Source of the DNA: Catajapyx aquilonaris
Lineage: Eukaryota
Assembly: GCA_000934665.2 (NCBI GenBank)
Contig: JYFJ02002398.1
Location: 1 to 57,780 of the forward strand
Direction: 5' to 3'
DNA: 57,780 bases
Position 1 is the stretch's first letter. Each line of letters starts with the position of its first letter. A program made the translations under genes and the position numbers. Below, one piece after another: positions 4,606 to 28,847 of this stretch. The notes under the pieces are model-generated. The model was given only the letters and a program-made list of their open reading frames with translations. It made no database searches and had not been told where the DNA came from.

Positions 4606-5137
4606 AGATGAGTTTAAAAAATAATGTCAAGAGATCTACCAAAAAATTAAGGTCAGAGAGTAGAGAATAAACCTTTAAAAAACGTAAACTGTGTGACGTA
4701 ATAAAGGTGATTTAGAAAGTATCGGTTATGTAAAATGTCTAGAATGATATTGCACAATAACGTACTTTGTGACAGGTCCAAAGTAATTTTGTGCTCTCGA
4801 GAGGCGAGGATAACAGTTATATTTCCGTCACCCGCCATCATTTTGCAATCTGAATTGTTGAACCTTCAGATAATCCAGCTAGGCTTCCCCATTTAATATT
4901 CAGCAAAGAAATAAGTTCGCCATAACCGATAATTTGTAGCTACATGTAGTTATCGCAGTAATTAACAGCTCGCTTTGTTAATATATTTTATGGTACGTGT
5001 GTAAAAAAAATTGAGTGTCCATTCTTGTAGCTGTTTTACACCATTATTTTCTAGCAACAAATGCTACGATCGCCAAATCTGGATAATATTCTCATATAAA
5101 AAGGAGCAAATCGATTGGAATAGATCAGTTTTCCAAC

Positions 5138-7050
5138 ATGGAAGCGATGCGTGTAGCAGTTGTTGCTCTTTGCTTCCTGGCAGCATTTACATCTGGTCAC
5201 GTTCAGACATTGACATCTGTTGGGTCGGAAGAGGAAGAGCTAGTGTCCTCCCTGGTTCAAGATGTCCGTGGTTCGAGACCCGAGTGTCTCCTGGTGCTGT
5301 GCTGCGACTGGTTGGTGTTCCCCTCTTCGTTTAACCGGCTGATCAACAATGGATCGGAGGAAGTGGCGGTGGTGAGGTGGGACGGGACACCAGTGGACGC
5401 CAGTGGACAGTACTGGTTCTCCTGGCTGCACAGACCGGAGGCCAGGAGACTGGACCCCTGCGCCACCTTCCTCTTCGCCTTCGGGACACTGGACACCTTG
5501 TCTCCTCTGGTGGTCCACGCGGCCACTCTTCACCTCATGGACACCGGAAGGGACAGGTTCCTCTTCTGGCCCAGGGACGGAGGTCTGGACACAGTCTTGA
5601 TGCATCCCATCGCCCAACTCATGCTCTTTCAGGTCGGGATCCAGTTCGACCAGGACTCCAGCTCGCTCAAGGTGATGGCGAACTGCCACTATTGCGATCA
5701 GGGACGCCCGAAAGTTGTTCAAGTAAGTAAATATAAGGGTTTTGGCACGGCAAATGAATTGTTCCCAGACTACTCCACCAATCTGCATGGAACTTTTGTA
5801 AATGCTACAGGACAGTTAGATCTCACGAAACAAGATTTGAAGCATTTGTACGATAACAAGCTTCCAATGTACAGTGCAGTTAATTTTATGCTGTTTGTAA
5901 GTGAGGCTCTAAATTTCGATTGGGCCACTGAAGCGTGCAATTTCGAAGAAGGTGAAATTGCTGACTCTCCTTTGCCTGATGGAAATTACACAGGTCAAAC
6001 TGGTCAGATCATACACAGAAATGCAGAGTTAGGCGTAACCATGTTGTCAAGCGAAATGTGCCAAGTTGTTGATGTTATATTCCCTCATTATTATGGCTAT
6101 TTGTCATTTACCACCAGAAGACATAGACACAGTTACCAGTGGAATTCGGCCATCATGCCATACACTTTGGACATGTGGGTTTGCACCTTTATTGTGACTA
6201 TATTTGGCAGTTTATTCCTATTCGCTATGTTAAAAATGCAGAAGAAATTCAGCGATCCTTTTCCAGGCAAAGACCCTTCATCCTTCCTCCTCTATTCATT
6301 ACGGTACTCATTTTCCACACTGATTGAGGAAAATCCCAACAGTGTACCTGAAGGTGATGCTCCTCGAGTGTTCATATCCTTCTGGTGGATTGGTTCATTA
6401 GTTTTAATATGTGGATACGAAGCCAGATATTTTGGGTTCCTGGCATCCCCATTGCTGGAAGATTTGCCCAAGACATTTCAAGATCTGGATGCAAGAAGTG
6501 ACCACTGGGAATGGGGGACTTTGGAAATTGCCAAACCATACTACTCGCGAATTTTTATGAATAATGAGTTGGAATACTTCAAACCCATTGTTGCTAAAAT
6601 GATATCCGAGTTTGACTTCAACACATGCATACGTAAACAATAGAGACCAATTACGCCTGCATTACAGCCTCTGACCTACTGTGGGCTCTAGGGGCTCAAT
6701 TTATAGACAAAGCTGGACGAATCCCCATTGTTGTGACAAAAGAGGCGGAAGTTTTGGTGCTTCTGGGTACTATAATGGACAAACACAGCTTGCTGAATTC
6801 GAGAATCAACAAGATATCACTACGTTACATCGACTCTGGTTTCATGACCAAGTACAACCAGCTGTTTCTAGACGCCTGCATGGTCATGGGAATCAGAGAT
6901 GCGAGAAAGAAGAATCGATTGTTCCAACAATCGATGGCCTTGAACCTGGAACAAATGAGAGGCCTGCTTTATTTCCTGGCAATTTTCTGCTGGTGTTTGA
7001 GTGTACTTGTATTCATTGTTGAACTTGTAATTGGGGTTGAATCGCTCTAA
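5138..7050 (+). CDS. Divergent ionotropic receptor (IR/iGluR-like), intronless, one frameshift near 6635-6640 (assembly error or young pseudogene)
   Basis: Signal peptide; S1 lobe (DGNYTGQTGQIIHRNAELG..FP); pre-M1/M1 (IMPYTLDMW...); pore region (LIEE..VP..RVFISFWW...ICGYEARYFGFL). After the shift the frame reads IETNYACI...KHSLL..RINK...YIDSGF and the last TM (LNLEQMRGLLYFLAIFCWCLSVLVFIVEL), stop at 7050. Confidence 0.85.
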
Positions 7051-8033
7051 TAAATAATCTGGGATACCCTTCAATAATTATAGTCTATGTATGCAGGGTG
7101 CAGAAATTTGACCTACCGTCGCTTTGGGGGATGATATATAGAGGGCTTCCAGGCGAAAATTTTAACTATAGGAATTGTGGATCTCCACAGCAAATTACCG
7201 AGATAATTTGCATTAAATAAAAAAATGCATTAGACTTTAATACCAGCTCATAGGTTTCGTTTCAGATTACTGCTTACGATACTTCCATCGTCTAGGTCCT
7301 AAATATGATCGTAAATTAAAATTAAATTACATAACACCTAACATTTAAATGAAAAATGGTAAGGTCCCATTGTAGGGACACATTTATCCAGAGTATTTTA
7401 TATTTCATATTTTCATATTAATTTTTATGGACTTACGGCTATTGCAATTTCCACAATTGCGTACCAGTTTGTACACAATGATGTCAAAATAAATTAATGC
7501 AATCAAAATCATGTACTGGCTTTGTAAGTCAATGGAGTCATGACATTCTACATTTTAAGCTTGGTACACTAATTGGACTGTGCTTTGCAATAATGGGTTA
7601 ACACACAATTTATATATTACTATTAAAATTCTACAAATTTTGAGGATGGCCGATTGTACTGTTGCATTCAACAATAAAATCAAAGCAATCACATGACACA
7701 AATTCCGGAAGATGTTCAGCAGATATGGATTGCCCAGGGCACGTCGCAGTAGAGTGTGCATGCAGATAAGTGGCGTATTGTAAACACATCGATCCTAATG
7801 CAGCCAGTTCCTGTCTACACTTATTGTCAGCACGCAAAATGGGGCTCGGTTTGTGGCTCTCTGATGTCATTTTCAAAGCAAAGTTCTCAAGTGGGGACGG
7901 AAATAAAGATAATGTCTAGTTAATAAGGTCAGGAATTATTTCACCAATCAATCAGGATGGTAATGAGCTCTTTATTTCCTTATATTTACAGTCCGTCAAA
8001 TGCTATGAAGCGCTAAGTCCGTTTCCGTCTTCT

Positions 8034-8708
8034 TCATTTACTGTTAGTTGTGTTCTGGGACAATTCGACGAAGTACTGGGTGACAGCATCCTTCCACATC
8101 TGAGGGTAGTCCTCCTGAAGGACTCCCAAAGGAGGTGGTTCGGTCGTGGTCTGGGGACAGTCATCACACTCGGCTGACCTTCCAGACGGGATAACCTCTT
8201 GAGATTCCTCTGGAAGATAAAATATTTAATGAGTGATTGATTGTTCAAGATATTAATTTTTTAGCGAGCTATTGAAAGAATCATCCACATCATACTGCAG
8301 AGGCAAAATGCAATTAATTCGGGCTCTATTGTCGAAAATAATTACGGTTAATTAGAGTAATGCCCACAACTCAGCAATACCGGGTTTTCTGTGTAATATT
8401 TCATTTTTTTCCGAATTCATTTTACTTAATTGGAAAAAAATTGCTATGTACTACTAGGCACATAATTTATGGCCTGCTGTACCACGTGCAAAAAGTAATG
8501 TTGTAAACCAATCCCGTTGTAACTCACCAAACTGGTCCTGCAACGACTTCCCCACGTGCGGACAAGGAAGCCCGTAGACGAAACACTTGATCTGGAGTAT
8601 GAACCAACTGTCGGACAAGGATTGTTCCGATGGCTCCTCTTCCTCCTGGACAATAGTGGCGCCGCTGCAGAGCGCCACCGTCGCCAACACCAGCGCTAAG
8701 CGGCGCAT
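8034..8708 (-). CDS. Chemosensory protein-like CSP-A (atypical, ~118 aa)
   Basis: Exons 8708-8528 and 8209-8034, GT..AG, phase 1. Signal peptide; QIKCFVYGLPC...ECDDC...QEDYPQMW (C-X6-C-X25-C-X2-C). Confidence 0.75.
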
Positions 8709-9176
8709 CCCAAAATACTAAATTCGGGTTTAAATATATGGACCACCCAAAATATTGCGTCTGGATCGACCTGTAGACCGGCTTCGAATGGAATCTTTCC
8801 TTTGTCCACTAAAAGCTAAGGATGAGTACCGGGGGGGCTACAAACTAACAAGATGGGGTTGGGGGGATGAGGGTAGGAGGGGGGGGGAGGGGTAAAAGAA
8901 AAATGGGCAGGTTTAAAGGGCGCCTTCGGGCTCCAAAAACGTGTTTTTTGGGGGCATCGGATATTGACCTGGACACTCCAAGGACTTGCCATTTTTTTGT
9001 GTGAGTTGGGCCTTCAACAGTTATGCGCTGAGCTTCTGATTGACCAACATTCCTGCAAAATTTGCGATATTTTGCACACAAAAAAATGTGTGCGATTTAC
9101 TGCGTCACTAGTTATTGTCATAATGGGGCAAGTTAAATGCAATATTTTTTTGTGTGACATTTTATTACGGGTCAAA

Positions 9177-10664
9177 TCATGGGGTGACTGGGGTTGTGGT
9201 GAGTCCCAAGGGTTGGACCAGATATTTGTCTATTGCGTCTCTCCATTCTTGGGGGTAGTTTTCCTGTACGTGTAGTGCTATCTTCTCAATCCTCTTCTTT
9301 CTGAACTCGTTGCAAAACTCTTCGGTTTTACACTCGGTCTTTAGGAACAGGAGCACATTGGCTGGAAATGGTAAAGAGAGCTTAAATTTAATATTCAATA
9401 TTATTCTTTTTGATTATTATTATTATCCTAAGGTGCATGCAACCCACAATGGCCGTGCTGCAAACAGACTTGTTTCAATGCCACGGTGTTCATGACCGCG
9501 ATTTTGCGGAGAGGGAAAAAGGCAACGTGAGAAAGTGACGCCTTGAAACAAAAATCTACTTAGATGGTAGATTAATGAGCATTGCGCTGGGGATTGGGAG
9601 CACACTATTTGTTATGTGGTGAGTCATACCTAGTAGTCAAAACGAAATGGGTCTCCAGGTCATTAATGTTATTAAATTAAAATTAATGTAAATTTTAAAT
9701 TAATAATAATTAATAATTACATAAATAAACTATAAATCAGCAAATATTAATAACGCTTTAATCCTAATGTTATATAATTTTAATAAATAGTAATAAATAT
9801 TAAATAATATTAACCATATAACAAATAAATAATAATCAGCAAAAATATATAAATATAATTGGTGGTAATAAAAAATAAAATAATGGCATAAAATAATGAA
9901 TAAGAAATGATATAAAATAATAATTTTATTACAAAGTAATAATATTAATTTAACTAACAACTAATAATCAAAGTATATAAATCAATAATTACAATTGACG
10001 ATAATAATAAATGACATTAATAGTAGACCTAATAGTGTAGGCCTAATAAATAAAATGAAAATAAAAATAACATAAATTAAAAATAAAAATAACAAATAAA
10101 TTGAAAATAAAAATAACAAATATGGTACCTAACAAATAAATTGAAAATAAAAATAGCAAACAAATTGAAAATAAAAATAACAAATAAATCGAAAATAATA
10201 ATAACAAATAAATTGAAAATAAAAAATAACAATAGTGATGGTAGGCTATAACTAATAATAAACTAAACAATATTGCTTAAAAATAACAAATAGTAACAGA
10301 GATAATAGTAAACCGGTTGCCATGGAAACAAAACCTGGACAAACAAACAAACAATTTTAGCATTTTAAAATATTCGAAATTTACTTTCAAAATATACTGT
10401 GTAATGGAGTATTTTAAAAATGGGAAAATAAAATGGGCATGCTGTGACCTCACCTTTCAAGAAACTTCCAATGATGTCACATGGCTTGTCATACACCACG
10501 CAGTCCAAGGTGAGCTTGACGCTCCTCTTGTTGCCCAAGTAGTCCTCAATGTTGACCCGATCGGCCTGGTCCCACGTGAACTGCCTCTTGACCCTGACTG
10601 ACCCCAAGGAGAGCTGACCAACAACGATCAGCAGCACAGCACAGAGCAGCTTGAACCCAGCCAT
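9177..10664 (-). CDS. Chemosensory protein CSP-B (~131 aa)
   Basis: Exons 10664-10454 and 9361-9177. DRVNIEDYLGNKR..CVVYDKPCDIIGSFLK | ANVLLFLKTECKTEEFC...QENYPQEW. TATA-like element at ~10709-10718. Confidence 0.88.
9670..10310. repeat. AT-rich low-complexity tract with ~24-bp tandem units in the CSP-B intron
   Basis: Repeated AAATAAATTGAAAATAAAAATAAC units. Confidence 0.7.
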
Positions 10665-11849
10665 GATCAGAGAAGGAATAAGCAGTACAAACCATACCGT
10701 GCCAAGCTTTTATATATACTAAAAGGAGAAGGTCTTGGACCTGAACCACTTTTTTAGCCATGTGGGACACGAAGATTGTTGTTTTGAGTCGGACAAAAAA
10801 ATTAGCAAAAAAAAAAAAGCCCATGGAGGAAACGCTCCCATCGAGACGACCTTGCAATTCGCAACGAAACAATCGCCCCTCTCTTTCAGTGGGAAGATTT
10901 TTTCGCGTGGATTTTTATATTTTTGTGCATTGTTTTTTAGCAATTGGCGGTCTTGTCAGGCACGAACACTTATTTCTGCCATGCTAATTTTTGCAAATTT
11001 TAATTAATATTGAGGCTAATCTTGTGAGTTGCATGGTGTACAACTCTGAGCACGTGCCTACTTAAAAATGTATTTTTATTCGCCAATTTTTAGAGTGGCA
11101 CACACTCCAAAATCAGACAGGAAATGAGGTAGAAAAGTGTGTTGTTGACTCCAGCAACCAGTTTGATGATAAGCAACATGTGGCACTGATTGTTGCAAAA
11201 ACATTGCTGAACCTGTGCATATCAATATATTTGTGTGCAATAGTGCTTAATAATTTAATTACACGGCGAAAATAATGTGCATTAATTTTAACTGTATTTA
11301 AATATATTTCATGGAATTTGTTTAAATATATACGGTACCGTATTTAACAAAACAACAGAAAAACAAATCAAATCGCAACAGATGATGTCTGTACCTGTGC
11401 ATTTCATTTTGTGCAATATTTAAATGGCTTATTAATTGAATTTTACTATATTTTATATTTAAATATATCTATGAAATTTTAATTAAATTATATATATATT
11501 TAAAAAAATATGCAGGAATTTTCTCTACGCCAATGGCGACAAGTGAGTTCAAGTGAATGGGATAGGTTCAAAATGTGCAAAAATGTATGTTACACAGCAC
11601 TTGCAAAATGTACGAGTCTAACTATCATTTAAGTGTTCAATGACCTGTGCCGTTTAATGTGTCAAGGAAATCAGGGTAAGGGTGTGGAATTTGACTTAAA
11701 AAGGAACTAGGCCACTATTTACATTCCGTATGTATATATATATATATATATTTTTTATTTTGCACGATCTTGTTACAACTGGTCAAAACTATGTACATAT
11801 TTTATGGCTTAATTTTTGTACTATTATTTTTTTCGAAAAATTTTGGGCG

Positions 11850-12651
11850 TTAGCTGGACGATGTGTTTTTAAAAAGAGATTCCGCCAGTTTTGGCTCCAG
11901 TTGGAGATACTTGGCTATTCCGTCTTTCCAAGCCTGAGGATAGTTCTCCTGTATGTGTTCCGCAACTTTAGTACCGATGGCCACCAACTTCTCGTCTTTG
12001 CAGGCTGGACAATCCCCATCTAGTGCTTTCTTGATGCTCTCTGTATGAATTGATGAAAAATGTTGAAAATAATTAGGCTGATCTTTACTACGCGACGAAG
12101 TCTACACTCTTAACCATTTACCTTCTCTGGAGAGGGTAAGAAAGTAGCCATTTTTACCTTACATTGTAGGGTAAATATTCTTGGGTAAATTGATTCTAAG
12201 GTAAATTTTGCATGTATTACCTTAGAAAATAGAGGGTAAAAAAAGAGGCCCTTTTTACCCTCTATTTTCTAAGGTAATACATGCAAAATTTACCTTCGAA
12301 TCAATTTACCCAAGAATATTTACCCTACAATGTAAGGTAAAAAATGGCCACTTTCTTACCCTCTCTAGAGAAGGTAAATGGTTAAGAGTGTGGGCCTCCC
12401 GCCTCTTCGTCGAGTAGTAAAGATCAGCATATTTCCATAAATATTACATGAACCTACTTACGTGTAATGTACTTTCCCACAGGATCACATGGTCCATTGT
12501 ATACCACACACTTGATCTGCAACTCAACAAACCTCTTGTTGGACAGAAACGCGTCGATGTTGATGTTGTCCATACTGAATGGAAGACTGTCCTGCTGACC
12601 TGTTGACCAGCACACAACACCCAACAGAACCAGAAGAGTGATTCTTGCCAT
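11850..12651 (-). CDS. Chemosensory protein CSP-C (~126 aa)
   Basis: Exons 12651-12462 and 12040-11850. DNINIDAFLSNKR..CVVYNGPCDPVGKYIT | QSIKKALDGDCPAC...QENYPQAW. Confidence 0.92.
12077..12428. mobile_element. Fold-back/MITE (near-perfect hairpin ~12104-12391) inside a second inverted-repeat pair
   Basis: ACACTCTTAACCATTTACC...GGTAAATGGTTAAGAGTGT with arms of ~140 bp; outer pair GCTGATCTTTACTACGCGACGAAG / CTTCGTCGAGTAGTAAAGATCAGC. Confidence 0.85.
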
Positions 12652-13419
12652 CTTTCAAACTCAGAGACTGAGGAGATGATCCTGAGATCCTGATGCAAAG
12701 GATATTTATAGTGAGGATTTTGTACAAGGTAATATTTTTATGAGGTAATATGAATAAGAAATGAACTTCCTGTGTAGACATGAAAGGTCTGCGGAAGTTC
12801 CATTGCCAAGTTGTTTGGCAGTAAAAAGAGGAAGTAGACTTTAATTATTCCAGACATTGTGTAAATGTAAAGGGTAAAGATAATGTAAGGGTAAAGGGTA
12901 AATGGAAGTTGCTAGGAAGTAAACTGCACAAAAAAATATGTGCCAACTGTTCCAAGTGACTTACAGCCATCGTACCTAATGTCATATGTAGGCTACTCTA
13001 ATAATGGAATAATACAGAATGAGCAACCTGGATAACTACTTAGCCATGATCGTTTCATAGTACTGACCAAGGGCAATAATTATTCCAGCGTATCCAGGTC
13101 ATTCATTTCCACAAGCATGAGAATAAACAATTTTCCGTATCATATGGAGAAATATATTTAAACGTTACAGGCTAGCACGTGCCTTATCATGAAGCAATCA
13201 ACCTTTTCAGGTCACCCAAAAAACAGTTCCCACAGACAATCCACAAAACGCGAGAAAAACCACTGCAACAATGAAAGTAACACATCTATTTATTTTCTCT
13301 TCTGAAGGCCTCGGCGGATGCGAACACTTTTTATGTACAATAATTAAAAAGGTGACTATATTTTTAAACACCTTTTTGTTGATGGAAGATGTTGCGAATT
13401 GTGAGACGACGAAGGTTGT

Positions 13420-14520
13420 TTATACGCGCAGATTTGACGCTCTTTGCAGTCTTCGAAGGCCGTCCATCCATGCCTGAGGATACCGGAGTTGAATATGGGA
13501 CGCGATCTTCCTCATCTTCAGGATCTGTTCCGGGCTGCAACCTCCGCAGCGACCTCCCAAGATGACCTCGACGGCCATACCTGAATATTACATGGGGGGA
13601 GAAAAAAAAATTATAAATGAGCAAAAGATGGTCAGGGACGATGCAATTTCCGAGGTCAACGTGAGGAACTACTGGTTCGTAAAATTACGGGTTTACTGCC
13701 CCCAGAATATATGAATTTATTATTTAAAATATTAAGCGAGTCAACGGAAGCAGGTTGACATGGTGATCAAATTGCTACGGAAACATGTTGCCATGTCAAT
13801 CAAGTTGCTATGAAAACATGTTGACATGGTGATCAAATTGCTATGGAAACATGTTGGCATGGCAATCAAGTTGCTATGGAAACTTGTTGACATGGTGATC
13901 AAATTGCTATGGAAACATGTTGGCATGGCAATCAAGTTGCCATAAAACAGGTCATGGCAACCTGTTTCCATGTGTGGACTCTCTTATCATTTTTATTAAT
14001 AAATTAATATATGAAACAATTAAGCAAAAAATATCAATATAAATATATAAAGACAGGCTGCCATGTCAATCAAGTTGCTATGAACACAGGTGGCTATGGA
14101 AAGCAAGTTGCTATAAAACATGTCATGGCAATCGAATGACTATGAACACAGATCGTCATGGCAACCAAGTTGCTATGAAACATGGGATGACAATCAAGTT
14201 GCTATGGAAGCAGGTAGTCATGGCAACCAAACCTGGACCAAACAAACAAAATTTGCCTTGTATACTATAATTATGATTGTAATAAATTATGGAATAAAAA
14301 TATCGGATGTCTTACGTTTTAAAGTTTTTCCCACGTTGTCGCAAGGTCCGTCGTACACGAGGCAGTTGATTTGGAGTCGTACACGAGCATCGCTTTTCAA
14401 GTACTGGTCGACGTCGATGGCGTCTAAGGGCGTCTTGAACACTGAGACTTGCTGTTTGCACTGTCCAAGTCCCAGAAGGGTCAGAGCTAGGGCCAACACA
14501 CAGGTCAAAAATCGTGTCAT
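13420..14520 (-). CDS. Chemosensory protein CSP-D (~121 aa)
   Basis: Exons 14520-14316 and 13580-13420. DAIDVDQYL..QINCLVYDGPCDNVGKTLK | RMAVEVILGGRCGGCSPEQ...YPQAW. Confidence 0.92.
13745..14250. repeat. 33-bp minisatellite (CATGTTG.CATGG..ATCAA.TTGCTATGGAAA) in the CSP-D intron
   Basis: Tandem units visible at 13745-13970 and 14055-14250; ends in CCAAACCTGGACCAAACAAAC. Confidence 0.85.
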
Positions 14521-16583
14521 CCTTAAAAAGGGAAAGTATTTTGCTGTGGCCAGCGGTTTATATAGCTTCGTTCTCATATGAAGATGTGTGGAAACACACA
14601 TTTCCATACGATCATCATTTTGGATTTTGTACAGAATAATTTCAATGAGACGAATAGGCGGAACAGAAACTTTCATTTTTTATTTTGCCAACTGCACTGT
14701 TAAGTAACGAGAAACTTGGTAACGAAACGGAGAAAGTGTACGCGCATATTTATTCCAAGTAGCGGGATTTTTTTCTTCTTCCTTTGACAGAATGCTTTAC
14801 AATGATGAACGTCTTAATTGAAGAGTGAAGCGATAATTACCTTGGAAATTGGGTATGAGTCATTCAAATTATATAAAATAATATTAGCTGAATTTTCCTC
14901 GTTTCATTAACTCATCAGTTTTGGATAGAATTTTTGCGGATAATATTTTAATGAAAAGTGGAATGTAGAACAAGAGGTCAAGACTATACTTCATGACCTT
15001 CTGTTTAATTTTCCTCTCTCTACATACTACATTTACCGAAGCAGTTGCAAGAACTATCTCAGAGAGCAGCACTAGTCATGGGCAACAACAAATCTCCATC
15101 TTCAATTCAAACTATGAACTAACTCTATAGGTTTGTCTTATTGTTGCCATATAACCACATTATGAATTGTGGGCATCTCGCTTAATTGGTGGTGTTAATT
15201 ATTTTAAGAAAGCCTGGCAAAACCTGAGCACGAACTAGCGATTCTGGTTTTTTTAAAAATTTCATTGAACATCGACCTCTAAGATCCGGTTGTAAAAATT
15301 ATATCCTGCGGAAAATATTTGCATGCACGACTTATTAAATGAGGACAATAGGGCTAAAGTGGATTAATTTTGAAATAAAAATTTAATACTGCACCTAGGA
15401 TGATACAATGGGGATGGATGTTCTTGGATTGATTACCTCAGCAACCAGCTTGCCACAATCGTTTGCTTCTTAAGTAGTTGCTGGGTTCAATAATAATATT
15501 CATATGGACCTGCGGAGATACTGAAAAATTCGCCACCCTGTACAATACATTCGAATTTAAAATTAAGAGGAATGCATTTGAATATAATCATTATAATAAT
15601 ATAATGAAATATCTAAAAAATATATATATTTCTATACTTGTACATCACGTTCAGCAAATTAGAAGACGGGATTAGTCAAATGGGTTTGAAAGCAACTATA
15701 ATTCGAAAAATTAAAACATCATAATTAATATTAAATGAATTTGAAAAATTATACTTAAAATATCCCCCCCCCCTCACAAATCCCTATCCTGACCCCTGCA
15801 CCGGAGAGAAAAACGCGAAGAATATTTCGTAAGAAAAAAAGGTGGTAGTCCACCCCCCCCCCCCCCCTAAAAGGGCTCGATGATCCCTCTAATTGGGTAA
15901 AGCTTAAAAATGTAAAAAAATTACATTTGAAATAATATTTACTATTTTTCAGGTATTGATGTCAAGGTGCGCCCTATACCTGCACAATATTAGACTTGAA
16001 ATTAGAGGAATATATTTAAATATTATTATAGTAAAATAATAATTTTTGTCTCCTTAACATAGATATTCAGCAATCAGTAATAGGCTTGAAAACAACCATA
16101 ATTATAATTAAAAATGCACAGCCCTATTTTTGTATTATTATATTAAATTATTGGTATATGTCAGGTATTGATGTCAAGGTGCACCTTATAAGTATAAATT
16201 AATCAAAAAAATTTCCATCACCTTGCACCCCACAACAACATTGCTGAAGATGTGGCAACACAATGAAGTGTGTCCTTGACAGAGCTTCATCTTCGAAACA
16301 TGCAACTCATAAGGGAAGAACCAAAAAAAATATATATGCACGTAAAAATAATGACGGTTTCTCAAGGATGCCAACACGAGCCCCTCTTTTGCGCAATTGG
16401 TTGCATCCTTCGAAGCGATATAATTGCATGAACAGCAAATAAACTTGACACGTACGTACAAAAGTTACGTAAACAACATATTTTTTTATTATTATTCATT
16501 TTCACACATGTCAAAAAAATGGGTGGGCAGCAAAAGATTTCTTAAAATGACGAGATTTTTTTTTTTCCGTTGGTTCCTGTAGT

Positions 16584-18077
16584 TTAGAGGGCCTCCAACT
16601 CTGGTGGTTCCTCTCCGTCGTTGAACTTTTCGATCAGCTTCTTGTATCGGTCAGGATGATTGTACTTGATGCTCTTGGCCATCTTGATCATCTTGCCTCG
16701 TTGCTGGGAAGTGCAGCTCTCGCATTGGTCCACCAGCATGTATGGGATGATGTCTAGAGAAGATTTTTAAAAAATGCACATTAGTGACGCTCAGTTAGCA
16801 CTTAGTGAGAAGTAGGCCTACTTAGTGAGTTAGTACGAGTAATAACACTGTGCACATTAGCGTTTGCTAAAAATGGACAGATGTCAATGAGTGGAATTTT
16901 CGTCGTACTACTAGTTTCGGTACTTCTAACTTAGCAGTACCAGTGTAGTCCAATGGTACTGCTAAGTTAGCAGTAACTAGTAGCACTACGAAAATTCCAC
17001 CCCAAATCTTAGAAATTAATAAATACTGGTGAAGCAATATCGTTAATAATGTTAGCGCTGACAGTTACTAAAGCCTAGTGACGCTCACTAACTCTTGCTA
17101 TATATTTAATGGCACTTAGCAATGTTTATTAGTGCTTTATGATGCATATAGTGAAGCTTAATGCAATCGTGCTTACTAACACTCTAGTCTAGTACAGATT
17201 GGCATATTTTAATAAAACTTAGTAGCGCTTCATAGTGCTTTAGGTCACTTAGACACAACTAATATTAATATAGCCAAATTACTTGTCCAGCTTACACTTA
17301 TAGTGAAGCTTAGCAGACTTTACTAGCACTTAGTGAAACTAGTAGACGTCACTAGCACTAAGTAAAGCTTAGCAGACTTTACTAGCACTTAGTGAAACTA
17401 GTAGACGTCACTAGCACTAAGTAAAGCTTAGCAGACTTTACTAGCACTTAGTGAAGCTTAGTAGATGTAACTAGCACTTAGTGAATGTTAGTTGCCGTCA
17501 TTAGTGTTTAGTGAAGCTCAGCAGACTTCACTAAGCACTAGTGACGTCTCCTAAGCTTCATTAAACACTAGTGAAGTCTGCTGAGCTTCACTAAACACTA
17601 GTGAAGTCTACTAAACTTCACTAGGGAAGTTTACAAAGCTAAGTTAGGTAAGCCCACTATTTTCCTAATGCTATTATCAATATATTTCTCTAATTATTGA
17701 CACAAAAGTGTCTCTCTGCCCCAAGATGGCCGCCACATTACGCCATCGCCATCTTTGGTATACTCACACTTGAGTCGCTTTCCGACAGCGTCGCAAGGGG
17801 CGTTGGGGGTGCCCAACACGCAGTCAATGTGGGCAGCTACCACCCTGGTCCTCTTAAGCAGATCCTCAACATTGATGCTGTCCAGATGACGCAAATCCTC
17901 CTGGATCTTATCCCTGGTGGCGTCGTCGATTTCCTGGTCCTCTAGAGCCACAGGCTCCTTGTCAATCTCTTCGTTGAGGTTGAACGTCGGTGGAGGAGGA
18001 TCGTCATCGACAGGCCTCGACAACACCACCGACGCCTGTAGGAAGACCACAGCTGCCAGAACCCAAAGTAACTTCAT
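16584..18077 (-). CDS. Chemosensory protein CSP-E (~159 aa, acidic N-terminal extension)
   Basis: Exons 18077-17768 and 16753-16584. LDSINVEDLL..CVLGTPNAPCDAVGKRLK | YIIPYMLVDQCESCTSQQR...FNDGEEPPELEAL*. Confidence 0.92.
16891..17000. mobile_element. Short hairpin MITE-like element
   Basis: GTGGAATTTTCGT.GTACTACTAGTT...CTAACTTAGCAGTACC / GGTACTGCTAAGTTAG...AACTAGTAGCACTACGAAAATTCCAC. Confidence 0.65.
17300..17640. repeat. ~30/61-bp tandem repeat with inverted terminal copies in the CSP-E intron
   Basis: AGTGAAGCTTAGCAGACTTTACTAGCACTT units; inverted copies after ~17530. Confidence 0.8.
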
Positions 18078-18532
18078 GGTCGATGCTTGCCTTGGCTCTG
18101 AAGACACTCCCAGGCTGCACTGCCGCTTTTATATTCTGAGCCCCCATGGTACAACGAGTCACATGACCTCGGTGATGCCTGCCGGGGTTTTACCCAACTG
18201 AAGATGGTTGTGACGCGCAAGAAAATTTGTAGCATACACTTAGCTTGTTTTTTGGAATGAGATGGGGGGTGAGGAGGGGTGGAGGGAGGAGGGTTCGAGA
18301 ATTTTCCAATGCAATGACTCAGGGTCATCAACTTGTCGATGTAGCTTATTTGCGTACGTAGGCATGTATTGCGTGTGGGTAACAATAAGGTGGGTTTCGT
18401 CTTAAGTGAGGTGGTCCTATTGTTGTGAAGTATTTTTGGAGCAGTTTTGTGTGGCTAACAACGTTGTCAGACTTGATGGTTGGATATGGTTATGTAATGC
18501 AGATTATAAATTAAATCATACAAAATAATAAT

Positions 18533-18737
18533 TATAAGGTAATATAAGGTAAATATAAGGTAATATAAGGTAAATATAAGGTAATATAAGGTAAATATAA
18601 GGTAAATTAGGCCTGGTAAAATTATTTTACCAGACCTAATTTACCTTATATTTACCTTATATTATGGTACCTTATATTTACCTTATATTATGGTACCTTA
18701 TATTTACCTTATATTTACCTTATATTTACCCTATATT
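18533..18737. repeat. Palindromic minisatellite (ATAAGGTAAAT)n / (ATTTACCTTAT)n
   Basis: Tandem units invert around the centre AGGCCTGGTAAAATTATTTTACCAGACCT at ~18610-18638. Confidence 0.8.
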
Positions 18738-20641
18738 AAAAATTATTTTAAACAATATTTTGTTGGCATTTGCATAACGTAACACCAGTAGTGACGCAAA
18801 CGACACTAATTTACAGCACATTTGCACGTACAGCCGTAAATTAAAACCTACTAACATACGTCACATGTACAGATGATACTTCCTTCATTTCGTAAAAAAA
18901 ATTAATTGTCAGCATTGAAGAAAAAAAAAAGATGAGATAGGAATGACCTTTTCCAAAAACTTTCCAACCGGGGTCGTGAGAAAAGAAGCATTCATAATAA
19001 TAATAATAATGACACTCCAAAAAAACCATGTTTTTTGTTTCAGTTCAGTGCCAAAACACAATGGATACTTTGTCCTCAAAAAATACACATGCTTTTCATA
19101 TATTCCTGTTTTGCATAACTTAAATCTCTCTCTGTTTTTTTTATTTAAAAAAACAGAATCACTTTCATAGGATGCTGTGTTATTAAAGTGACGTAATTTT
19201 TCCCATTGACGTACAGTAGCAATAAGAAATTTTCGTATCATTTCATGCCTTTGATTTTCAAGGTAAATAGAGGGTTACGATTTCTTAGAAGTCAAGCCAC
19301 GTACGTACCTGTAAGTAGCACCTTTTTTTGCATCCTCGTGATGTTTACCAAATCGTAAGCATAAAAAATATTGCTTCAGGGCATAATTAATAATTCAGAG
19401 GATGGGGGCTTCTAAGAAAAGATTAGTTTGCCAACTCACATGTTTAATTAGAGCAATATATTATTGGAGGCTAAGGTACTCTAGGAGACCTTTTTTCACC
19501 TTGTTGGATTTAACAATTTGGCCACTTTTTATGGACGTTCACCTTGACCACTGGATTATTTTTGTGGGTGTGTTTGAAGGACATGGCCAAGCCGGTTCAA
19601 AATATCGTCTAGACATAGCTGTCTGTGTGAAAATTTTATGCAAATTTAAATAAAATATTGCAAACTATTTTTATGCTTCGTCATTGAAATCTGCATAATG
19701 ATTTTGATATATTTTAAACATGAAGTTGAATCGTCTCATGAAGTCATATATGCATAATTCAAAACACAAATGTTATGATTGACAAATTTCGCAAGTGAAT
19801 GTTTAAATAATGTGTTATAAATATTACTTAAAAATAAGTGGTTTTTATTACAGTACAAGACAATGCAGCTGCTCATTACATATTTAATTTTTCAGATTAA
19901 TATTATGTTAAAATTAATATACAAACGTGTGATGTACATCGCACTTTCTTGTGTCCTATAGACGGAAATTACTAGACAAAATATTGGTTTAACCTTGGAA
20001 ACATTTCTATTGCCAGCCTGTTATCACACCATGAAAAAAACTAGGAAAAGCAAATTAGTTCTATAGAATCTTCAGCATTTGACGAGCTCTTGCGTATTTC
20101 CTTAAAAGTAGTGATTCATAGAGCATAGATCTGCAATGCAATAAACATGCGATTTTTCATATGACTGTGCAAAAGAAGGTGAATCATTCGGGGGGAGAAA
20201 CGCAGTTCATCTCTTGTGATTCCAAACAAGTGCAATCAAAATGTTGCGACACAAATATTCGTGACGCTCATCTTTATTGAGCATGTTTACAAAAGACATT
20301 GAGCAATAACAGACAATAAAGAACAACATATTATACGTATATACAGGATGACTCAGTGGGATCCTGTCAAAATTAATAACAGACACTCAAAATTAGTGAC
20401 AATCATTCTGGCGTATATAATGCTAGATTTGACATTTGGTTGAGCAGTAAATATTTTTGCAATTAAGCAAACTGTTAAAATTGAGCATAGATGGCAGTAT
20501 GGTGAGATTAAAATGTGACTGTCAGACAAGCAGCATGTTTTCATTATATGCCAATTACTATAATAGAGCTTTTCTTTCACTAACCAATATTAACAAAATC
20601 GCAATTACTACAACTATTGTAACTTCCCACTGTAATGTCAC

Positions 20642-22532
20642 CTAAAATGCTTCCAACTCAATGGGTTCTACTCCACCTTCGTACTTGTCCAGCAATTGCT
20701 TGTACCTATGGGGCAGTTGATGCTTGACCACCAAGATGCCCTTATACAAATCTCCTCTATTTTCAGAAGTGCAGGATTCGCATCTGTCCTCTTGCAAAAA
20801 GTCAATTATTCCTGCAAAAAAATAATTCAAAATAAAATATGACATTTCAACTTCTCCATAAAAAAAATCATTGACCTTTGACCCCTTCTCCTATTTCATC
20901 ACATGGTCCATCATCCACTGCACATGCGACCCTATGTTCCACCAATGTTAAGTTCTTGACATCTACGTCGAAGTTGATGCTATTGAGAAGTGCTAGGGCT
21001 TTCTTGTTAGCTTCGGATAGTTCTTTTGGTTCATCGTCATAGTCTTCGTAATCGTCATACTCTCCTTCTCCTGCTTCTTCCGCTTCTTCGACTATATTAT
21101 GTATTCATTGTCACATTATGTGTTACCAGATTTTATGAAGTTGTGTAATTTGGATCATGGCACTCACCTTTCTTAGTTGTGACCTCCGGCTTTTTAGTGG
21201 TGACCTCCGCTTTCTTGGTAGTAGTTTCCTTGACATCGGCCTTTCTGCTGGTGTCTTCTGTCACTCTCTGTAGCGGCGTATCATCCAAAGCCTGAGGAAA
21301 CTGCAAGAATAAAAAAGGTTCACAAGTGTGAACAAAACAGTGGCCTTTTGTCCAAAAATATCATTTTTTATTTTTAAAAAAAGTCACGCGATTATATAAA
21401 AATTGGTAGGGTACAAAAGTAGGTCTCTTTGATCGCACTTTCAGATTATGCTGCTCACAACCCTTGACCCACCTTTGTCTGTGCGTGTTACTGTACCATA
21501 ATTTTCGAGAGGAGCATGCCTGCACACACAAATTAACGCCTCTTGACACTATAGCTCGTGATAATATTTATTATTAAATAAAGATGTATTAAAAATATTT
21601 TTTTGAATATAGGTGACACAATAATGTCTTTTATGGCTTATTGTCACGCACTAAATTATTGAAATCTCACTTTTTCTTAGAAGACAACATTACGTTGAAT
21701 GAATTAAAGTTTCCTGAAACATTACGTAATGTTACTTAATGAGAACGGCTGTATTATGCAATGTGACTACCTGTTATCGATTCAGATTGCACAACAACAT
21801 AATCAAACCTTCACAAAATATTTGGCAAGTTCACACATGAACAATAATTTTATGTAGGCTACTATTATCAAGTTAGTGAACTGCATCAGTTAACTACAGT
21901 GTGTATGAAATATTTAAATTTAATAAACAGTCATAAACGTAAATGTACAATGGGCCTACTATAACACAAATTGTAATCATATAAAATTTAATAATGAGTA
22001 CCTTCTGATGCTATACAATGCATCAAAATGTTCAATCTCATAAAACTATTTGACAATGCGATAATTTTTTTTCATCAAATCCCCCACCTTTTTAAGTACC
22101 TTTACAGTCACCTAAACCAGTGAGAGCAAGATCTGTCCAACGTCATGACCAGATTCTCAGAATAATAACCTCCCAATCACATTTGCATACAAACTAGTTC
22201 AGTGGGCTTAATCATTTCTGAGAACTGACCGGTCAACTTGGGGTTTTTACATACGTACTCAACAAAAAAATAGTGTATGTATACTTCACCTGGAAATTAG
22301 GGCTGAATATGACTCCTTTCATATCTCCAAACTGGTCCTTAAATTGCGATGCTGGCATGAACTCTATTCTGGATGCTGTGACCACTATGACCTTTTGCTC
22401 TTCAACTGCTCTTCCAGTAGCAGGATCAATCACCCTTGGTCTCAGATAATAATGGAATGGACATGCGCCAAAAGCAAGTCCTAACCACAAACCTAAAACA
22501 AGCGAGGAGATGGCCCTAGACATGGCTGCCAT
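20642..22532 (-). CDS. Chimeric 4-exon CSP-F (~253 aa): signal peptide, unrecognised region, Thr/Lys linker, acidic tract, CSP domain
   Basis: Exons 22532-22290 (phase 0), 21300-21168 (phase 1), 21091-20876 (phase 1) and 20811-20642; all GT..AG, frame open throughout. CSP domain NSINFD..VACAVDDGPCDEIGEGVK | GIIDFLQEDRCESC...YEGGVEPIELEAF*. Joining exon 1 is an inference. Confidence 0.78.
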
Positions 22533-22879
22533 TTAACCCAACTAAAGCCTTCTGTAGTCTCCTTTCAACTGCTTGGTAATTGTATATTCGAAGGTCCTCC
22601 AATCATGTTTTTCTTTCTGCAAAAAAATATTCATATTTTAGGCCAAATTCTGAATTGTTTTTAACATGTGGACTTAGGCCTAGTTGGATATCCAATATGG
22701 CGGATGGACTGGGTTGTAGTTATTAAAATTAAAATGGTTTTTTTTAAAAATAATTTTTATTTGTGACGTAGCTACACTTCGAAGGCCACTTGCGTAACAG
22801 TGGATTATATGGAGGACGTCCTTGGTTTTTGCAGAATTGAGTTGATGCGAAATCAGGATATATAAAATGGCGGCAATTA

Positions 22880-24171
22880 TCAGAGAGCTTCAAGGGCTGG
22901 AGGTTCCACACCGGATAAATATTTATCCAGAATCTTCTTGTATTCTTGAGGAAATTCTTTTTTCACCCTTTTGGCCAACTTGATGAACTTGCCCCTCTGA
23001 ACTCGGGTACAGAACTTGCACTCTTCTTGTAACATCCGGCCCATGATGGCTGTAACGTACAAAAAAAATTGTACATATATTTTTTGTCAAAGTGTAATTG
23101 TGCAAATTGGGGTGATGTGCGCAGGTGATCCGAATTGTGTGTCATTATCACCCTGTTAGGTCATGTGTGTTGCTGACGTGAATGGAAATGGGTAATGAGT
23201 GTTTTTATTACACTTTTTTTGTTCGGGAGAGAATATCAATGATTTCCGTAACAATTTAAAAAAAATGACAATGCAAAAAAATACTTGTGGTGTCATTGAT
23301 GTGGTAAGAGGAATCCATGTACGTAAACCGTCAAACTGTAATTTCTATGGCAGGTGCTTTCAGATTGTTGGTTTTATAACCATCTTTCTTTGTTTCTGGT
23401 GCAATATTGCGTAATATCTATTAGAAAAATATGTATTACAATATTTTAGATTCATCTAGAAACCAGTCATACACAGTTGAATGTATATGGTCAGTAAGAT
23501 TCAATATTTTGGTTCGAACAAATACATTTTAATATAATTTCAACTCACATTTGTTATAGCCTGTTGAATCAACACGAAATATGAAAATTTTTTATTAGCA
23601 TAAAAATATTTTTGCAAATTTGAACTTTTCGTTTGAATGAAACTGAGCCTTATTGAGATTCCGTACTGAAATTTTTGTAACGAGCAGAATTTTTTGATTC
23701 ACAATTCACACCTTTACGAGTAAGTTCATTTAATTTTTTATTAATTTGGGTGAAAATGCATTCTTGTAATATTTTCCTTATACAGTACTTTTTGATAAAG
23801 TCAAGAGATGCGACTGGTTTTGAAGGCCATGTTAGATCCTTGTCCTTGCGATTCTAATCCGGTTTCTATCTTTTTTTTCTAAATTTCACACCATGCACCT
23901 AAATCCCCCTGCCAGGAATACGACTTCTCTCATCCGAATCCTTACTTGCAACAGCCGCGGCAGTCTTATCCTCGCAACTATCGTCCTTCAAAACGCATTC
24001 GACTTGAAACTTGAGTTCCTCTTCCTTCAGAGCTAGAGGATCGTATGAATCCAGATGAACCAACGAATCTTTTTCTTCCTGAGTAAGATGACTAGCTGGA
24101 TCCTTGGCTGATGTGCACACCGACACCAGCGCACACAAAGCAATAGGCAACAACCATCCGGAGAGCCTCAT
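22880..24171 (-). CDS. Chemosensory protein CSP-G (~131 aa)
   Basis: Exons 24171-23946 and 23049-22880. FQVECVLKDDSCEDKTAAAVA | TIMGRMLQEECKFC...YLSGVEPPALEAL*. Confidence 0.88.
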
Positions 24172-24455
24172 TCTCGACCACTTACGTCTCAGCTTGAACT
24201 CAATAAACTTTCTAATGGACCTGTATTTATACAAGAAAACACCCTACTTTTCGTGTATGCCCATCTAAATATTTTTTTTTGTAACATTCGAGACGACAAT
24301 CATGGAAATGATTTATGTCCTTGGATAATCGAGCAAGGAGAACTAGGGAGAGTGAAAGGAAATTGAGACACTGCATAATGTTAATACTGCTTCAGCCCAT
24401 TTATTTTGTCAGTTAGTAATACTGGCACGTGTGACTTTTGTTTAGTTGATTTTTT

Positions 24456-25274
24456 TTACAAGGCTTCCAGTTCAGGTGGCTCAACACCGTCGTTAAACTT
24501 CTGGAGAAGCTGTAGGTACAGGTCACGCATCTCATACTTGATGGTCTTCGTCAGCTTGATCAACTTTCCACGCTGCTTGGAGGTGCAGCTGCGACATTCA
24601 TCCTCAATTGCCAGATCCATCAAAACTGAAAGAACAAACAAATAATTGTAATACACATCAAGTATACAGGATATGTCGTGTTGTGGCAACAGGTCAAAGT
24701 AGGCCTAGCTCCAATGTGCTAACCCTTGGTAATCTATGAGAGCTCGTCTTGTTTAAAAACATTAATTGTAACGCGCTCTATCTGTACAACCAAAAGGTAC
24801 CAAATTTGCCCCCTTTTTGACGACAGGTCAAGGTGTTGCTATTTGACCCCATTAGGCCTAGCTCTGGTGCTAACTGTAGTTCGTTTCTGACATCGCCTTT
24901 TGTTTAAAAACAGCGTAATTGTAATGTCCTGTCTCTGTACAACCCGAAGGTGCAAATTTGATCCCTTTTTTGATAACAAGTCAAGATATTGCCATTTGAC
25001 CCCACAAGGCCTAGCTTCTGTACTCACCCTTGATGCTCTTTGAGACCTCATCGTCTTCGCAGGGGTGATCATCTTCCTCCAAGAAGCATTGGGCATGCTT
25101 TCTGATGGCCTCTTTGTCCTTGATCAGTTCGTTGATATCCAGGCCATCCAAATAATCAGCCGCTTTCTGCTGCTCTTCGGTCAGCTTGACCCGGACCCTA
25201 TTTCTTCTCTGAGGGGCAGCCACGGCCAACCCAACCAGTACCACCAACCCCAGAATAAGCACAGCCTTCATCAT
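24456..25274 (-). CDS. Chemosensory protein CSP-H (~138 aa)
   Basis: Exons 25274-25028 and 24625-24456. LDGLDINELIKD..CFLEEDDHPC.. | VLMDLAIEDECRSC...FNDGVEPPELEAL*. Confidence 0.9.
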
Positions 25275-25680
25275 GTTTCCTTGACTAACTTTAGACTGCA
25301 GATGATTCGATGATGCTCAGCCATCCCCTTTTATAAAGCGGATTCTCCAACCTGTTGTCTCTATTTTTTGTGTCCATTTTTTAAAGCTTTATCAAGGAGG
25401 AGAATTATGACTAAGAGTTTTCCCCCGAAGGAGCTGGATTGTTCTTAGGAAAGAACCAGATTCATGACGCAAGGTCCGCGCGTCATTAAACCTGCTGCCT
25501 CGTTTAACAACCTTGCTCAACGAGATGAAGGTGACGATAATGATCCTTGGTTTGGTCTAAAGCGGAATTGTTGTGTAGGAAGTGTAAATTTTTTTTAAAC
25601 TTAAAATTTATTGTCATCTTTTGTTCACATTTTGTAACGATGACCTATAGAAAACACTCATATGGTCACATATGATTTGT

Positions 25681-26810
25681 TTATAAAGCTTCTAGTTCTG
25701 GAGGTTCGACGCCGTCGTTGTATTGTTGAAGAAGCTGTGTGTATTGCTCGGGCATCTTGTACTTCATAGTCTTGGCTAATTTTATTACTTTGCCACGTTG
25801 CTTTGAAGTGCAGCTTCTACATTGGTCCGTCAGACCAACCTCGACCAGAGCTGAAAAATTTGCGATTTTTTTTAAAATACACGTGATGAAAATTCAGCAC
25901 TTGCACTGAATTGCATGCATAAATTTTTAACAAATATAAATGATGACAGACTTAATTTGAGTAATTTCTATTGCAAATATTTCTGCATTTAAAGGCTATG
26001 TATGACGAAGCGTTTAATAAACGCCTCGTCATACACAGCCTAACGCAAAACCATACAGTGTAATTATTTTTTAAAAACTTATATAAGCTCAAAAGTTTCC
26101 ACAGTGTATACGGTTTCTTTTTTAAAAAACTGCAAATGTTACAAATATCAGCGGAAGAAAAAATAACTATAAAAATTGATATTGAGCATAAAATATTTAA
26201 GTGCATTTTCAGCATATGTGCCTTAATATTTTTCGTATATAAAATATTTGCACTTTCATAAAACATGTGCAAAAGTACGTGTCATGCATGCATGTCGTTT
26301 TGATTATTTTTTTGCCATACAAAAAAAATTTATTCACATGCTGTAGTGACCTTCCTGGAATTAAAAAAGGTCGGGAAAATTTCACATTCTAACTTGAAAT
26401 TGCTTACTTAATATTTCGCAACGTTCATTAAATTGTTAATTTTAAAAAAAATGTTCTCGATGGCTTACCATCTGTTGCATTATGTTTTCGATTAATTTTT
26501 AATTTATTTTAGTGTTTAGAAATATTTTTAAGTGTTAGTAGCCTACTTGAACAATCAGCAACTTACCATGGATTTTCTCAGCAATCTCATCATCTTGGCA
26601 AGGATCCGTTTCATACCTCAGGAAGCACTCGACATGCTTCTTAAGTCCTTCCACGTCCTTGATCATTTCGTTGACGTCAAGTGTGTCCAAATAGTCCGCC
26701 GCCTGCTGCTGCTCAGGGGTCAGCTCGACCTTGACCCTTGCTTTCCTCTGACCCAACACGACTGTACATCCCAACAAGACAATACCGAACAAGAGAGCAG
26801 ACCTCATCAT
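25681..26810 (-). CDS. Chemosensory protein CSP-I (~137 aa; close paralogue of CSP-H)
   Basis: Exons 26810-26567 and 25850-25681. LDTLDVNEMIKD..CFLRYETDPC.. | ALVEVGLTDQCRSCTSKQRGK...YNDGVEPPELEAL*. Confidence 0.9.
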
Positions 26811-28847
26811 CTCGTTTCGTTTCCTCAACACAGTTTGTAGGGGCTTCATATACTCCTTATAAAGGCAGGAAAGCGTGGTCAGGTAACTGCAATTTTACTC
26901 TCTACGCCATAACCGTGAGAATAACAAATTTTAGAATCACACCAAATAAGTGAAAAGTGGTGTTATGAAGGGGTCATAAAAGTACCCTTGGTGGGCCAGG
27001 GTTGTAGAACTTTACATTTTTGCAATCATCCACGTCAAAGAAGTTGACCATTTTTGAGATGACGTCTTTCAGAGGAAACTATTCATTACAAGGCTAAGAT
27101 GGTGCTCAACATGAAATATGGTGTACCTTACAACCCTGACAGAAAAAAAGCATGTCAATCGAAAGAAAAAGGTGTCGTGTCCAAGGATCTGCTCTTGACC
27201 TTGTGATGTGATCGGAAAGTACCAAACTCTCATGATATCATATGAACATGCTATAGTGTTTGTAGTCCCACACATGATCATTACATGTATAATTTATTCT
27301 GACTTACACTTGTGTACACTCGCCCTAACGTGTTTTTTCCGGGAAGGATATAGCTTCTGAGAATGTGTCGTTTTATTGTTCCCACATTTTTTTTCATGTA
27401 TTTGCATTATATTTTTTAGGGTGTAAGGGAAAACCCGCATATAGGGTTGATTTATGATTATTATAGTGAATGTGACTTAACTACATGGAGTAAAACATAC
27501 TGAAGGCCATGCCATGTGAATATTGAGAAATTGTGTGACATAATACGTAAGCAAAAGTACTGGTAATGGCTGTAATTTTTGCACGGATGAGGATGCAATA
27601 ATAATGTGAGATATTGGTTTATCATGAATAAGCAACTTTTAAAAAATCGGTTAAAATCGGTTAAAAAATCGGTTACTAACTGAATATCCAATAGTTAATT
27701 GACATTTTTATACATGACAGTATAGTGAAAGCCCACGTAGCTAATATTTTCAGTTATCAGCAATAATTAGTTGAAGTTAACAAATATTTCATATTAGTCA
27801 GGTTACAAATAATTATTCATTGCTTATTATTGCTATGAAATTTTGACAATGATGAATAGCATTCTGGTTGCTGACGTAGCCCGAGATGTAAAACTGAGCC
27901 TTAAATTTTCTTGGAATGTTCATTGGTATTGCCATACAAACAAGGTGCAAAAAAATTGGAAATTTACAACTTACTGAATTATTTATTATATAATATCCAT
28001 TTGAAATATTTTAAAGCGCACCTAAATACGCGATTTTATGAACTGGTCGTATAACTACATACAAAAGTGGTACAGATCTATACTGGGCCGATTAATAGCC
28101 ATAAACGTGACAATCATAACTCATGATTATCCTGGAAGCGGCAGTGCAATTTGTAGCTCATAATCATATTCCGTATAGGACCGGATTCAGCGAAAGTGGG
28201 AAGTGAGAGTGAGGTTAAGACCGGGAAATGATTAAGTCCAGTTAGTTTACTTCTGAAAACTAGCTTTAACTCTGAGAGTCTTATCTTGATCGTCTAACGT
28301 TGTGCTACTTCACAGGTCATGTTTTCACAACATTAAAAAAAATAGTTTAAACCGTATCTGGGTAATGGATTGGAGAGATGCAGGAACGATATGTCATTTA
28401 CTGTATATGACTAGTATATAGTGTTATCAAAAAATATATATAAAAAATTGAGCTCCCTCTACCATCAGGATACATTGTGGTGTCACATCGAAGATCAGTT
28501 TGTTGCTAATGAGGAGATGGAAGATGTTGTAATGTCACTTATTCTGGAGGCGGATATGGGTGTGGTGATGATCAATCCTCTCATGTTGTGTAAATACCAG
28601 GAGGAAAATAAATGCTACTTAGGGCTGAAATAAAATTGACATATTGTCATTGTGAATGTCACTCGATTTGTCTGGAGATAGTAATGAAGTTTTTGCGAGT
28701 TATGGTACATAGTTTTTCACGTTTATGATATTGGCAAAAAAAGTTGCATCACGAAGTGATTACTTTTGAGTGACCTGATTTGGACAATATTTTCCAAAGT
28801 GATCTATAGCCTGCTTATATGTTGACAAAACTACATTACATATCTCA

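Follow-up and report, generated by a model that had tools for sequence, protein, structure and literature searches.

In the window, by which we mean the whole 57.8-kb contig that was analysed (the genome has 285.6 Mb), one gene of a tandem CSP array appears to place a long additional segment in front of its CSP core. This raises the question of whether so unusual a chain is encoded by a single spliced gene and, if it is, how the additional segment arose and what it might do. According to the excerpts of the papers cited here, CSPs have about 100-120 residues (PMC4145409) and four cysteines (PMC4145409, PMC3134979), and their genes mostly have two and sometimes three exons, where the additional introns often fall within the signal peptide (PMC12940638, PMC7230875).

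Gene structure and transcript evidence

The preliminary description had proposed four exons spliced in frame, and this structure holds: all three introns are GT..AG, the coding exons (243 + 133 + 216 + 170 = 762 bases) form a single open reading frame of 253 codons and a stop, and one transcript contig runs over all of the junctions (Table 1). A TAA lies in frame immediately 5' of the first ATG (22532). Retention of intron 1 or intron 2 would bring a premature stop at codon 100 or 137, respectively, and skipping of exon 2 would do so at codon 114; skipping of exon 3 would preserve the frame with the loss of half of the CSP core.

Table 1. Coordinates of the extended CSP gene, of its predicted elements and of the surrounding array
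Feature	Position	Strand	Description or basis
Tandem array	8034-49246	minus	16 co-oriented CSP genes; frames intact
Sister CSP genes	37568-36249, 34982-34476		Extra phase-0 intron directly after signal peptide; support as sisters 100/99
Exon 1	22532-22290	minus	243 bases, residues 1-81; ends in phase 0; joint 21300/22290
Predicted signal peptide	22532-22467	minus	Residues 1-22; Kyte-Doolittle hydropathy, cleavage by the -3,-1 rule
Orphan module	22466-22290	minus	Residues 23-81 (59 aa, pI 8.2); no homologue; AlphaFold2 model
Cys24 in GACPFH	22463-22461	minus	Fifth, unpaired cysteine; Cys count against paralogues
Intron 1	22289-21301	minus	989 bases, phase 0, GT..AG
Exon 2	21300-21168	minus	133 bases, residues 82-125; phase 0 in, phase 1 out
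Three 21-base units	21231-21169	minus	KETTTKK/AEVTTKK/PEVTTKK (xExTTKK), in exon 2
Intron 2	21167-21092	minus	76 bases, phase 1, GT..AG; acceptor without pyrimidine tract
Exon 3	21091-20876	minus	216 bases; acidic tract and first half of CSP core; phases 1-1
EYDDYEDYDDE	21062-21030	minus	Residues 136-146; candidate sulfation sites by acidic-context count
Intron 3	20875-20812	minus	64 bases, phase 1, GT..AG; between Cys2 and Cys3
Exon 4	20811-20642	minus	170 coding bases; second half of core, Cys208, Cys211, stop
3' UTR	20641-20263	minus	AATAAA at 20278; transcript contig ends at 20263, 15 bases beyond AATAAA

The transcript sequences are Logan contigs of the public run X1, whose kind is not on record, compared with positions 8000-27900; X1 was the only public run found to contain the stretch (35% of sampled words). 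We infer that X1 is RNA because it skips introns of five genes, shows a loose poly-T end at 24376, which is 29 bases beyond the AATAAA that belongs to the gene at 25274, and includes a contig that ends near an AATAAA. Nine joints were found in the compared region, seven of them with CT..AC ends. Those on the extended gene lie at 20810/20875 (20811/20876 when the cut is shifted by one base), 21091/21168 and 21300/22290, all at depth 25.7, and a single contig of 1,161 bases (record 4) spans all three where the preliminary description had placed them. This record aligns to 20263-20810, 20875-21091 and 22290-22552, and its in-between piece (record positions 766-898) has 133 bases, the same length as exon 2. 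The sole transcript difference in exon 1 is amino-acid-changing (Phe26 to Tyr). The transcript support consists of one contig from one run, which possibly shares its source with the assembly, and such contigs drop rare isoforms.

The first exon (22532-22290) is not part of a separate transcript, and no junction lacks support, as record 4 joins all of the exons. Exon 1 is also not the tail of the upstream gene, because that gene has a separate AATAAA, at 22761, and a joint of different depth (8.29 versus 25.7). We regard the spliced, four-exon gene as real with high confidence. An acceptor-like T-tract with CAG lies at 22630-22617 on the minus strand, 85 bases 5' of the ATG, and is followed by a 13-codon out-of-frame upstream ORF; a non-coding first exon may exist further upstream of the acceptor-like site at 22617, and the transcript contig stops at 22552. 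Elsewhere X1 has two non-canonical joints, one at 12938/13708 with TG..AA ends and a 769-base skip, and one at 12150/12243 on the opposite strand, with several differences around 12210-12391.

The CSP core and the tandem array

The core cysteines Cys182, Cys189, Cys208 and Cys211 form the canonical C-x6-C-x18-C-x2-C, and the excerpted family pattern is C1-x6-8-C2-x16-21-C3-x2-C4 (PMC5755795). The first two of these cysteines are in exon 3, which also carries an N-glycosylation sequon at Asn172. Scanned separately, exon 3 and exon 4 match the Pfam profile OS-D (PF03392) with 13.1 bits and with 18.9 bits (E 0.0016) over profile positions 6-39 and 49-86, each below the 25-bit cut-off, and the profile built from the clade matches solved CSPs with E 3e-4 and 8e-4. 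CSP cores are six-helix carriers of hydrophobic ligands, and by analogy we infer that this core folds in the ordinary way and binds such a ligand. It had been described as lacking a signal peptide of its own, and this is borne out, since no in-frame ATG occurs in exon 3 from the upstream stop up to the core. With 253 aa and a first core cysteine at residue 182, the protein lies outside the usual size of CSPs (about 100-130 aa). The earlier premise that CSPs are small, single-domain proteins stands for their typical size but not for the family as a whole, as long CSPs with C-terminal tails appear in the excerpts of two published studies (PMC5755795, PMC13607926).

All OS-D matches of our search of the gene's own genome fall on the contig with the array, where five places exceed the cut-off. 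Thirteen of the 16 genes have two exons, two have an extra phase-0 intron, and the extended gene has introns of phases 0, 1 and 1; the phase-1 intron between Cys2 and Cys3 is common to all 16 genes and is confirmed here by the joint 20811/20876. For the genes at 8708 and 24171 the donors come from RNA joints, and the rule-modelled donors of the genes at 25274 and 26810 agreed with X1 joints. The extended gene groups within a 10-gene local clade with support of 99/97 when all 16 rows are used and of 98/97 without the two long-branch rows. The module, the fifth cysteine, the Thr/Lys repeats and the acidic tri-Tyr tract are found in none of the 15 paralogues, in which the first core cysteine is at residues 42-86 as against residue 182 here.

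Two of these paralogues, the gene for 159 aa at 18077 and the gene for 177 aa at 49246, resemble the extended gene in having an acidic N-terminal extension before the core, so that lengthening in front of the core has occurred more than once in the array. They differ from it in having two exons and extensions of only 33 and 28 residues, respectively, each within the first exon, and in carrying no extra cysteine, Tyr tract or repeats. The gene at 49246-46447 also has a C-terminal tail rich in Thr, Ala and Ser. Two further genes, at 8708-8034 (spliced in X1) and 10664-9177, are divergent long-branch CSPs with altered spacing (x25 between Cys2 and Cys3; x5 between Cys3 and Cys4). The CSPs, together with divergent ionotropic receptors, suggest an arthropod host. 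If the host is not an insect, 16 CSP genes are many, given the one or two per non-insect species in the excerpt of PMC4145409.

Several other features of the contig were recorded. The array is flanked by two long, apparently intron-poor ionotropic-receptor-like frames, each split over two frames, one at 5087-7047 (plus strand; Lig_chan 35 bits) and one at 56063-54073 (minus strand) that is so classed by resemblance only, with no significant Pfam match. A MATH-BTB gene lies at 51892-51116 (minus strand), and its first codons are present once more near 52610, about 700 bases further upstream. A dispersed repeat of about 80-90 bases occurs in several copies at 37270-36750 (minus strand) in intron 1 of the gene at 37568, and a similar stretch sits downstream of exon 1 in the gene at 14520.

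A signal peptide and an orphan module in exon 1

Exon 1 had been described as encoding a signal peptide, an unpaired cysteine in GACPFH and about 55 residues without assignment, and each of these elements was recovered. The Kyte-Doolittle hydropathy (19-mer) is 1.79 at residue 8 and at most 0.94 beyond residue 25, so that the N-terminal signal peptide expected of a CSP corresponds to a single peak at residues 8-26, the sole hydrophobic stretch; the chain has no membrane segment by hydropathy besides the signal peptide. Signal peptidase sites follow the -3,-1 rule, by which cleavage after A-F-G is the most likely, predicting Ala23-Cys24 at the mature N-terminus. Beyond residue 22 the extended gene has five cysteines and all 15 paralogues have four, which makes Cys24 the unpaired one.

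The module of residues 23-81 matched nothing in Pfam, the protein collections, the PDB, phages or its own genome. Pfam scans of the exon 1 region were blank, as were searches of phages; a search against 5.8 billion proteins with lengths of 143-2000 gave 0 of 205 candidates at E<=1, which is weak evidence, a HMMER search over 1.84 billion representatives gave none at E<=0.001, and PDB sequences gave none at E<=10. The only match to exon 1 or exon 2 in the own genome, where a donor or paralogue was sought, was the gene itself (one candidate per search). For a query of 59 residues such blanks weigh little, because the same kind of search with the core alignment missed all CSPs: a 10-exon alignment used to look for core relatives yielded none in 8,000 scored candidates, despite CSPs being plentiful. 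Two candidate relationships were considered. Language-model Atlas features placed the module near the prealbumin-like sandwich (CarboxypepD_reg, PF13620; 0.78-0.86), and a profile of this family, built from 10 of its 13 matches in the own genome, gave residues 23-100 a score of -0.6 bits, a value reached by 346 of 2,000 shuffles, which lends the lead no support. A decayed or frameshifted CSP first exon was rejected, with no positive profile score at the protein or DNA level in any frame.

Single-sequence AlphaFold2 predicts a small beta-rich fold with one helix for the module (mean pLDDT 73 and pTM 0.48 for the best model; pLDDT 59.5 to 73.1 among the five models). With this single-sequence model as the query, Foldseek found no match at E<=0.001 in the PDB or BFVD, and the best VIA-align Z among 48,161 chains was 3.5; from these fold searches one can conclude neither that the fold is new nor that it differs. 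A homodimer prediction scored 0.01, which is uninformative either way. The codon use of the module (0.20 bits per codon, versus 0.26 for the core of the same gene) is coding-like: none of 1,387 stop-free, overlapping non-coding windows scored as high, and on synonymous choice alone 3.9% of them did. The codon test is nevertheless a weak one, as the windows overlap, the 15 paralogues all score above the module (0.30-0.83), and introns and paralogues were within the training set.

The linker and the acidic tyrosine tract

The description of exon 2 as mucin-like was overstated. In place of a long repeat domain rich in Pro, Thr and Ser there are only three 7-residue units, that is, a 21-residue repeat, and the 44 residues of the exon include 10 Thr, 1 Ser, 3 Pro and 10 Lys/Arg. 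Exon 2 reads as a short spacer rather than a mucin domain, and it could act like a short glycosylated spacer. Repeat units 2 and 3 differ by three synonymous changes and one amino-acid-changing one, and this mostly synonymous pattern, over few sites, suggests selection on TTKK. Dibasic pairs in the linker are RK at 100 and KK at 110, 117 and 124, with no KR or RR.

An acidic context around Tyr is the rule by which sulfation sites are recognised, and the claim that such a context precedes the core agrees with our counts. Residues 126-146 include 13 acidic residues and 3 Tyr, and each Tyr of the tract has 6-7 acidic residues within 5 positions; a Tyr with at least 4 such neighbours is absent from all 15 paralogues.

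Function and origin of the extension

The reading we prefer, at a probability of roughly 0.4, is that of a secreted CSP that was extended in place and that its module and linker keep tethered close to the secretion site. The 59-residue module would fold independently and bind a second copy or an extracellular partner through its surface or Cys24. The Thr/Lys repeats would form a flexible, probably O-glycosylated spacer that gives the core its reach; the acidic tract with its three Tyr, which may be sulfated, would add a second contact for a basic partner. The outcome would be a carrier or sink retained near the site of secretion and not freely diffusing. The layout of module, linker and domain, without a membrane segment, fits a two-part secreted protein. 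The compact single-sequence model of the module (pLDDT 73) and the extra cysteine and acidic Tyr residues, unique among the 16 genes, argue for this reading; the orphan status of the module, the spread of pLDDT among its five models, the amino-acid-changing transcript difference in exon 1 and the dibasic pairs of the linker, which are cleavable in principle, argue against it. The tether function taken by itself is a tentative proposal, drawn from these features of the predicted protein.

The extension itself is probably maintained by selection. No orthologue of the extended gene was found in the searches. If the addition were instead mostly inert or solubilising, the protein would be an ordinary diffusing CSP with a tolerated extension. 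The acidic extensions of 28 and 33 residues in two other genes of the array favour such tolerance, and the orphan module and the third-position GC of the extended gene (0.45, the lowest of the 16; 0.50-0.70 in the others) point in the same direction. We consider this unlikely, however, as 177 stop-free, coding-like bases of the module and the repeats have been preserved at the protein level, the single-sequence model of the module is compact, and three introns are correctly spliced.

With regard to origin, the sequence comparisons make it most likely that about 125 residues were gained in place, between the signal peptide and the core, and that no known gene was captured. Exon 1 would have lengthened, and the linker repeats and acidic tract would have expanded. 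The start position, spacing and orientation match the array (the ATG lies 347 bases after the stop of the upstream gene; the values for the neighbours are 284 and 406), no donor was found, and the array includes paralogues with a phase-0 intron behind the signal peptide (n = 2) and with acidic extensions (n = 2). The tree, on the other hand, does not group the extended gene with the phase-0-intron pair, and a tree constrained to do so is neither rejected nor shown (p-AU 0.295); the weak acceptor of intron 2 and the missing TATA-like motif also speak against an origin in place. The original suggestion of a chimera created by exon gain is not demonstrated: the own genome yielded no donor, exon 2 is asymmetric (phase 0-1), and two paralogues were lengthened within one exon.

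A true gene fusion, in which exons 1 and 2 came from an unrelated secreted gene and were fused, within the phase-1 intron 2, with a 5'-truncated CSP, concerns origin only and is compatible with the tether function. The weak acceptor just mentioned would fit such a join. In no frame does exon 1 resemble a CSP first exon (profile scores <0), which fits this origin, as does the symmetric (1-1) exon 3. The TATA-like motif found before 10 of the 16 genes is missing here, which may be taken in the same sense, but it is missing from five other genes of the array as well. A fusion nonetheless appears quite unlikely to us, given that the only candidate for exon 1 or exon 2 in each own-genome search was the gene itself and that start position and orientation are consistent with the tandem array.

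Returning to function, the linker could instead be a cleavage region. Combinations of dibasic and acidic Tyr contexts occur in peptide precursors, and here the RK and three KK pairs adjoin the acidic Tyr tract; cleavage would release an ordinary CSP that keeps an acidic leader, perhaps sulfated, along with a small second peptide that has a role of its own. This also seems quite unlikely, since KK is a weak convertase site, KR and RR pairs are absent from the linker, KK would be shielded by O-glycans on neighbouring Thr pairs, and the repeats resemble a spacer. It is improbable that this is the first eukaryotic CSP with a folded, new N-terminal anchoring domain that was born from non-coding sequence and that fixes a lipid-binding domain, through Cys24 and sulfotyrosines, to the cuticle or sensillar matrix; next to divergent ionotropic receptors, the diffusible carrier would there have become immobile and would take up or present ligand.

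Comparison with known systems

The comparisons below are with the excerpted parts of the papers cited. Like arthropod CSPs (OS-D/A10, PF03392), the extended gene has a signal peptide, the pattern C1-x6-C2-x18-C3-x2-C4, one intron in the core and a place in a tandem cluster (PMC5755795, PMC12940638, PMC3134979); unlike them, it encodes 253 rather than about 100-120 aa in four exons, with a fifth cysteine and some 125 additional residues in front of the core. Mosquito CSP5 reaches 187-331 aa through a C-terminal extension (PMC5755795), and the long insect 'N-4CSP' has an N-terminal CSP domain and mucin-annotated tails (PMC13607926). Both share with the extended gene a CSP domain plus a long extension, but their tails are C-terminal, whereas the extended gene has the reverse order and its extension begins with a putative folded module. 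In the 'C-4CSP' the OS-D domain lies at the C-terminus of a longer chain, as it does here; that type is described from bacterial records only, with 457-482 aa, and insects are said to have the N-terminal type (PMC13607926). The extended gene, compared with it by description only, is a spliced eukaryotic gene encoding 253 aa. Drosophila Obp59a offers a loose analogy as a long and localised carrier-family protein (PMC3134979, PMC7653356, PMC6191283): its sequence is unusually long (PMC3134979), and it is tightly localised, with a non-olfactory role in hygrosensory sensilla (PMC6191283). It differs in belonging to the OBP family and in being conserved across insect orders, and the excerpts do not tie its localisation to an extension.

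No N-terminally extended eukaryotic CSP was found in the literature searched; the supplements of PMC13607926 and PMC5755795 may contain some. Neither the length nor a Thr-rich appendage is new, but a position before the core, together with an orphan module and a free cysteine, was not found in that literature. The extended gene is a member of the CSP family with a new architectural variant. As a single gene in one genome its weight is limited. CSPs are seen as small carriers that diffuse, and the long forms in the excerpts consulted are tailed behind the domain. A transcript-supported extended CSP among 15 ordinary paralogues is a natural test case for the tethering of a carrier, and also for how a new domain joins an old gene.
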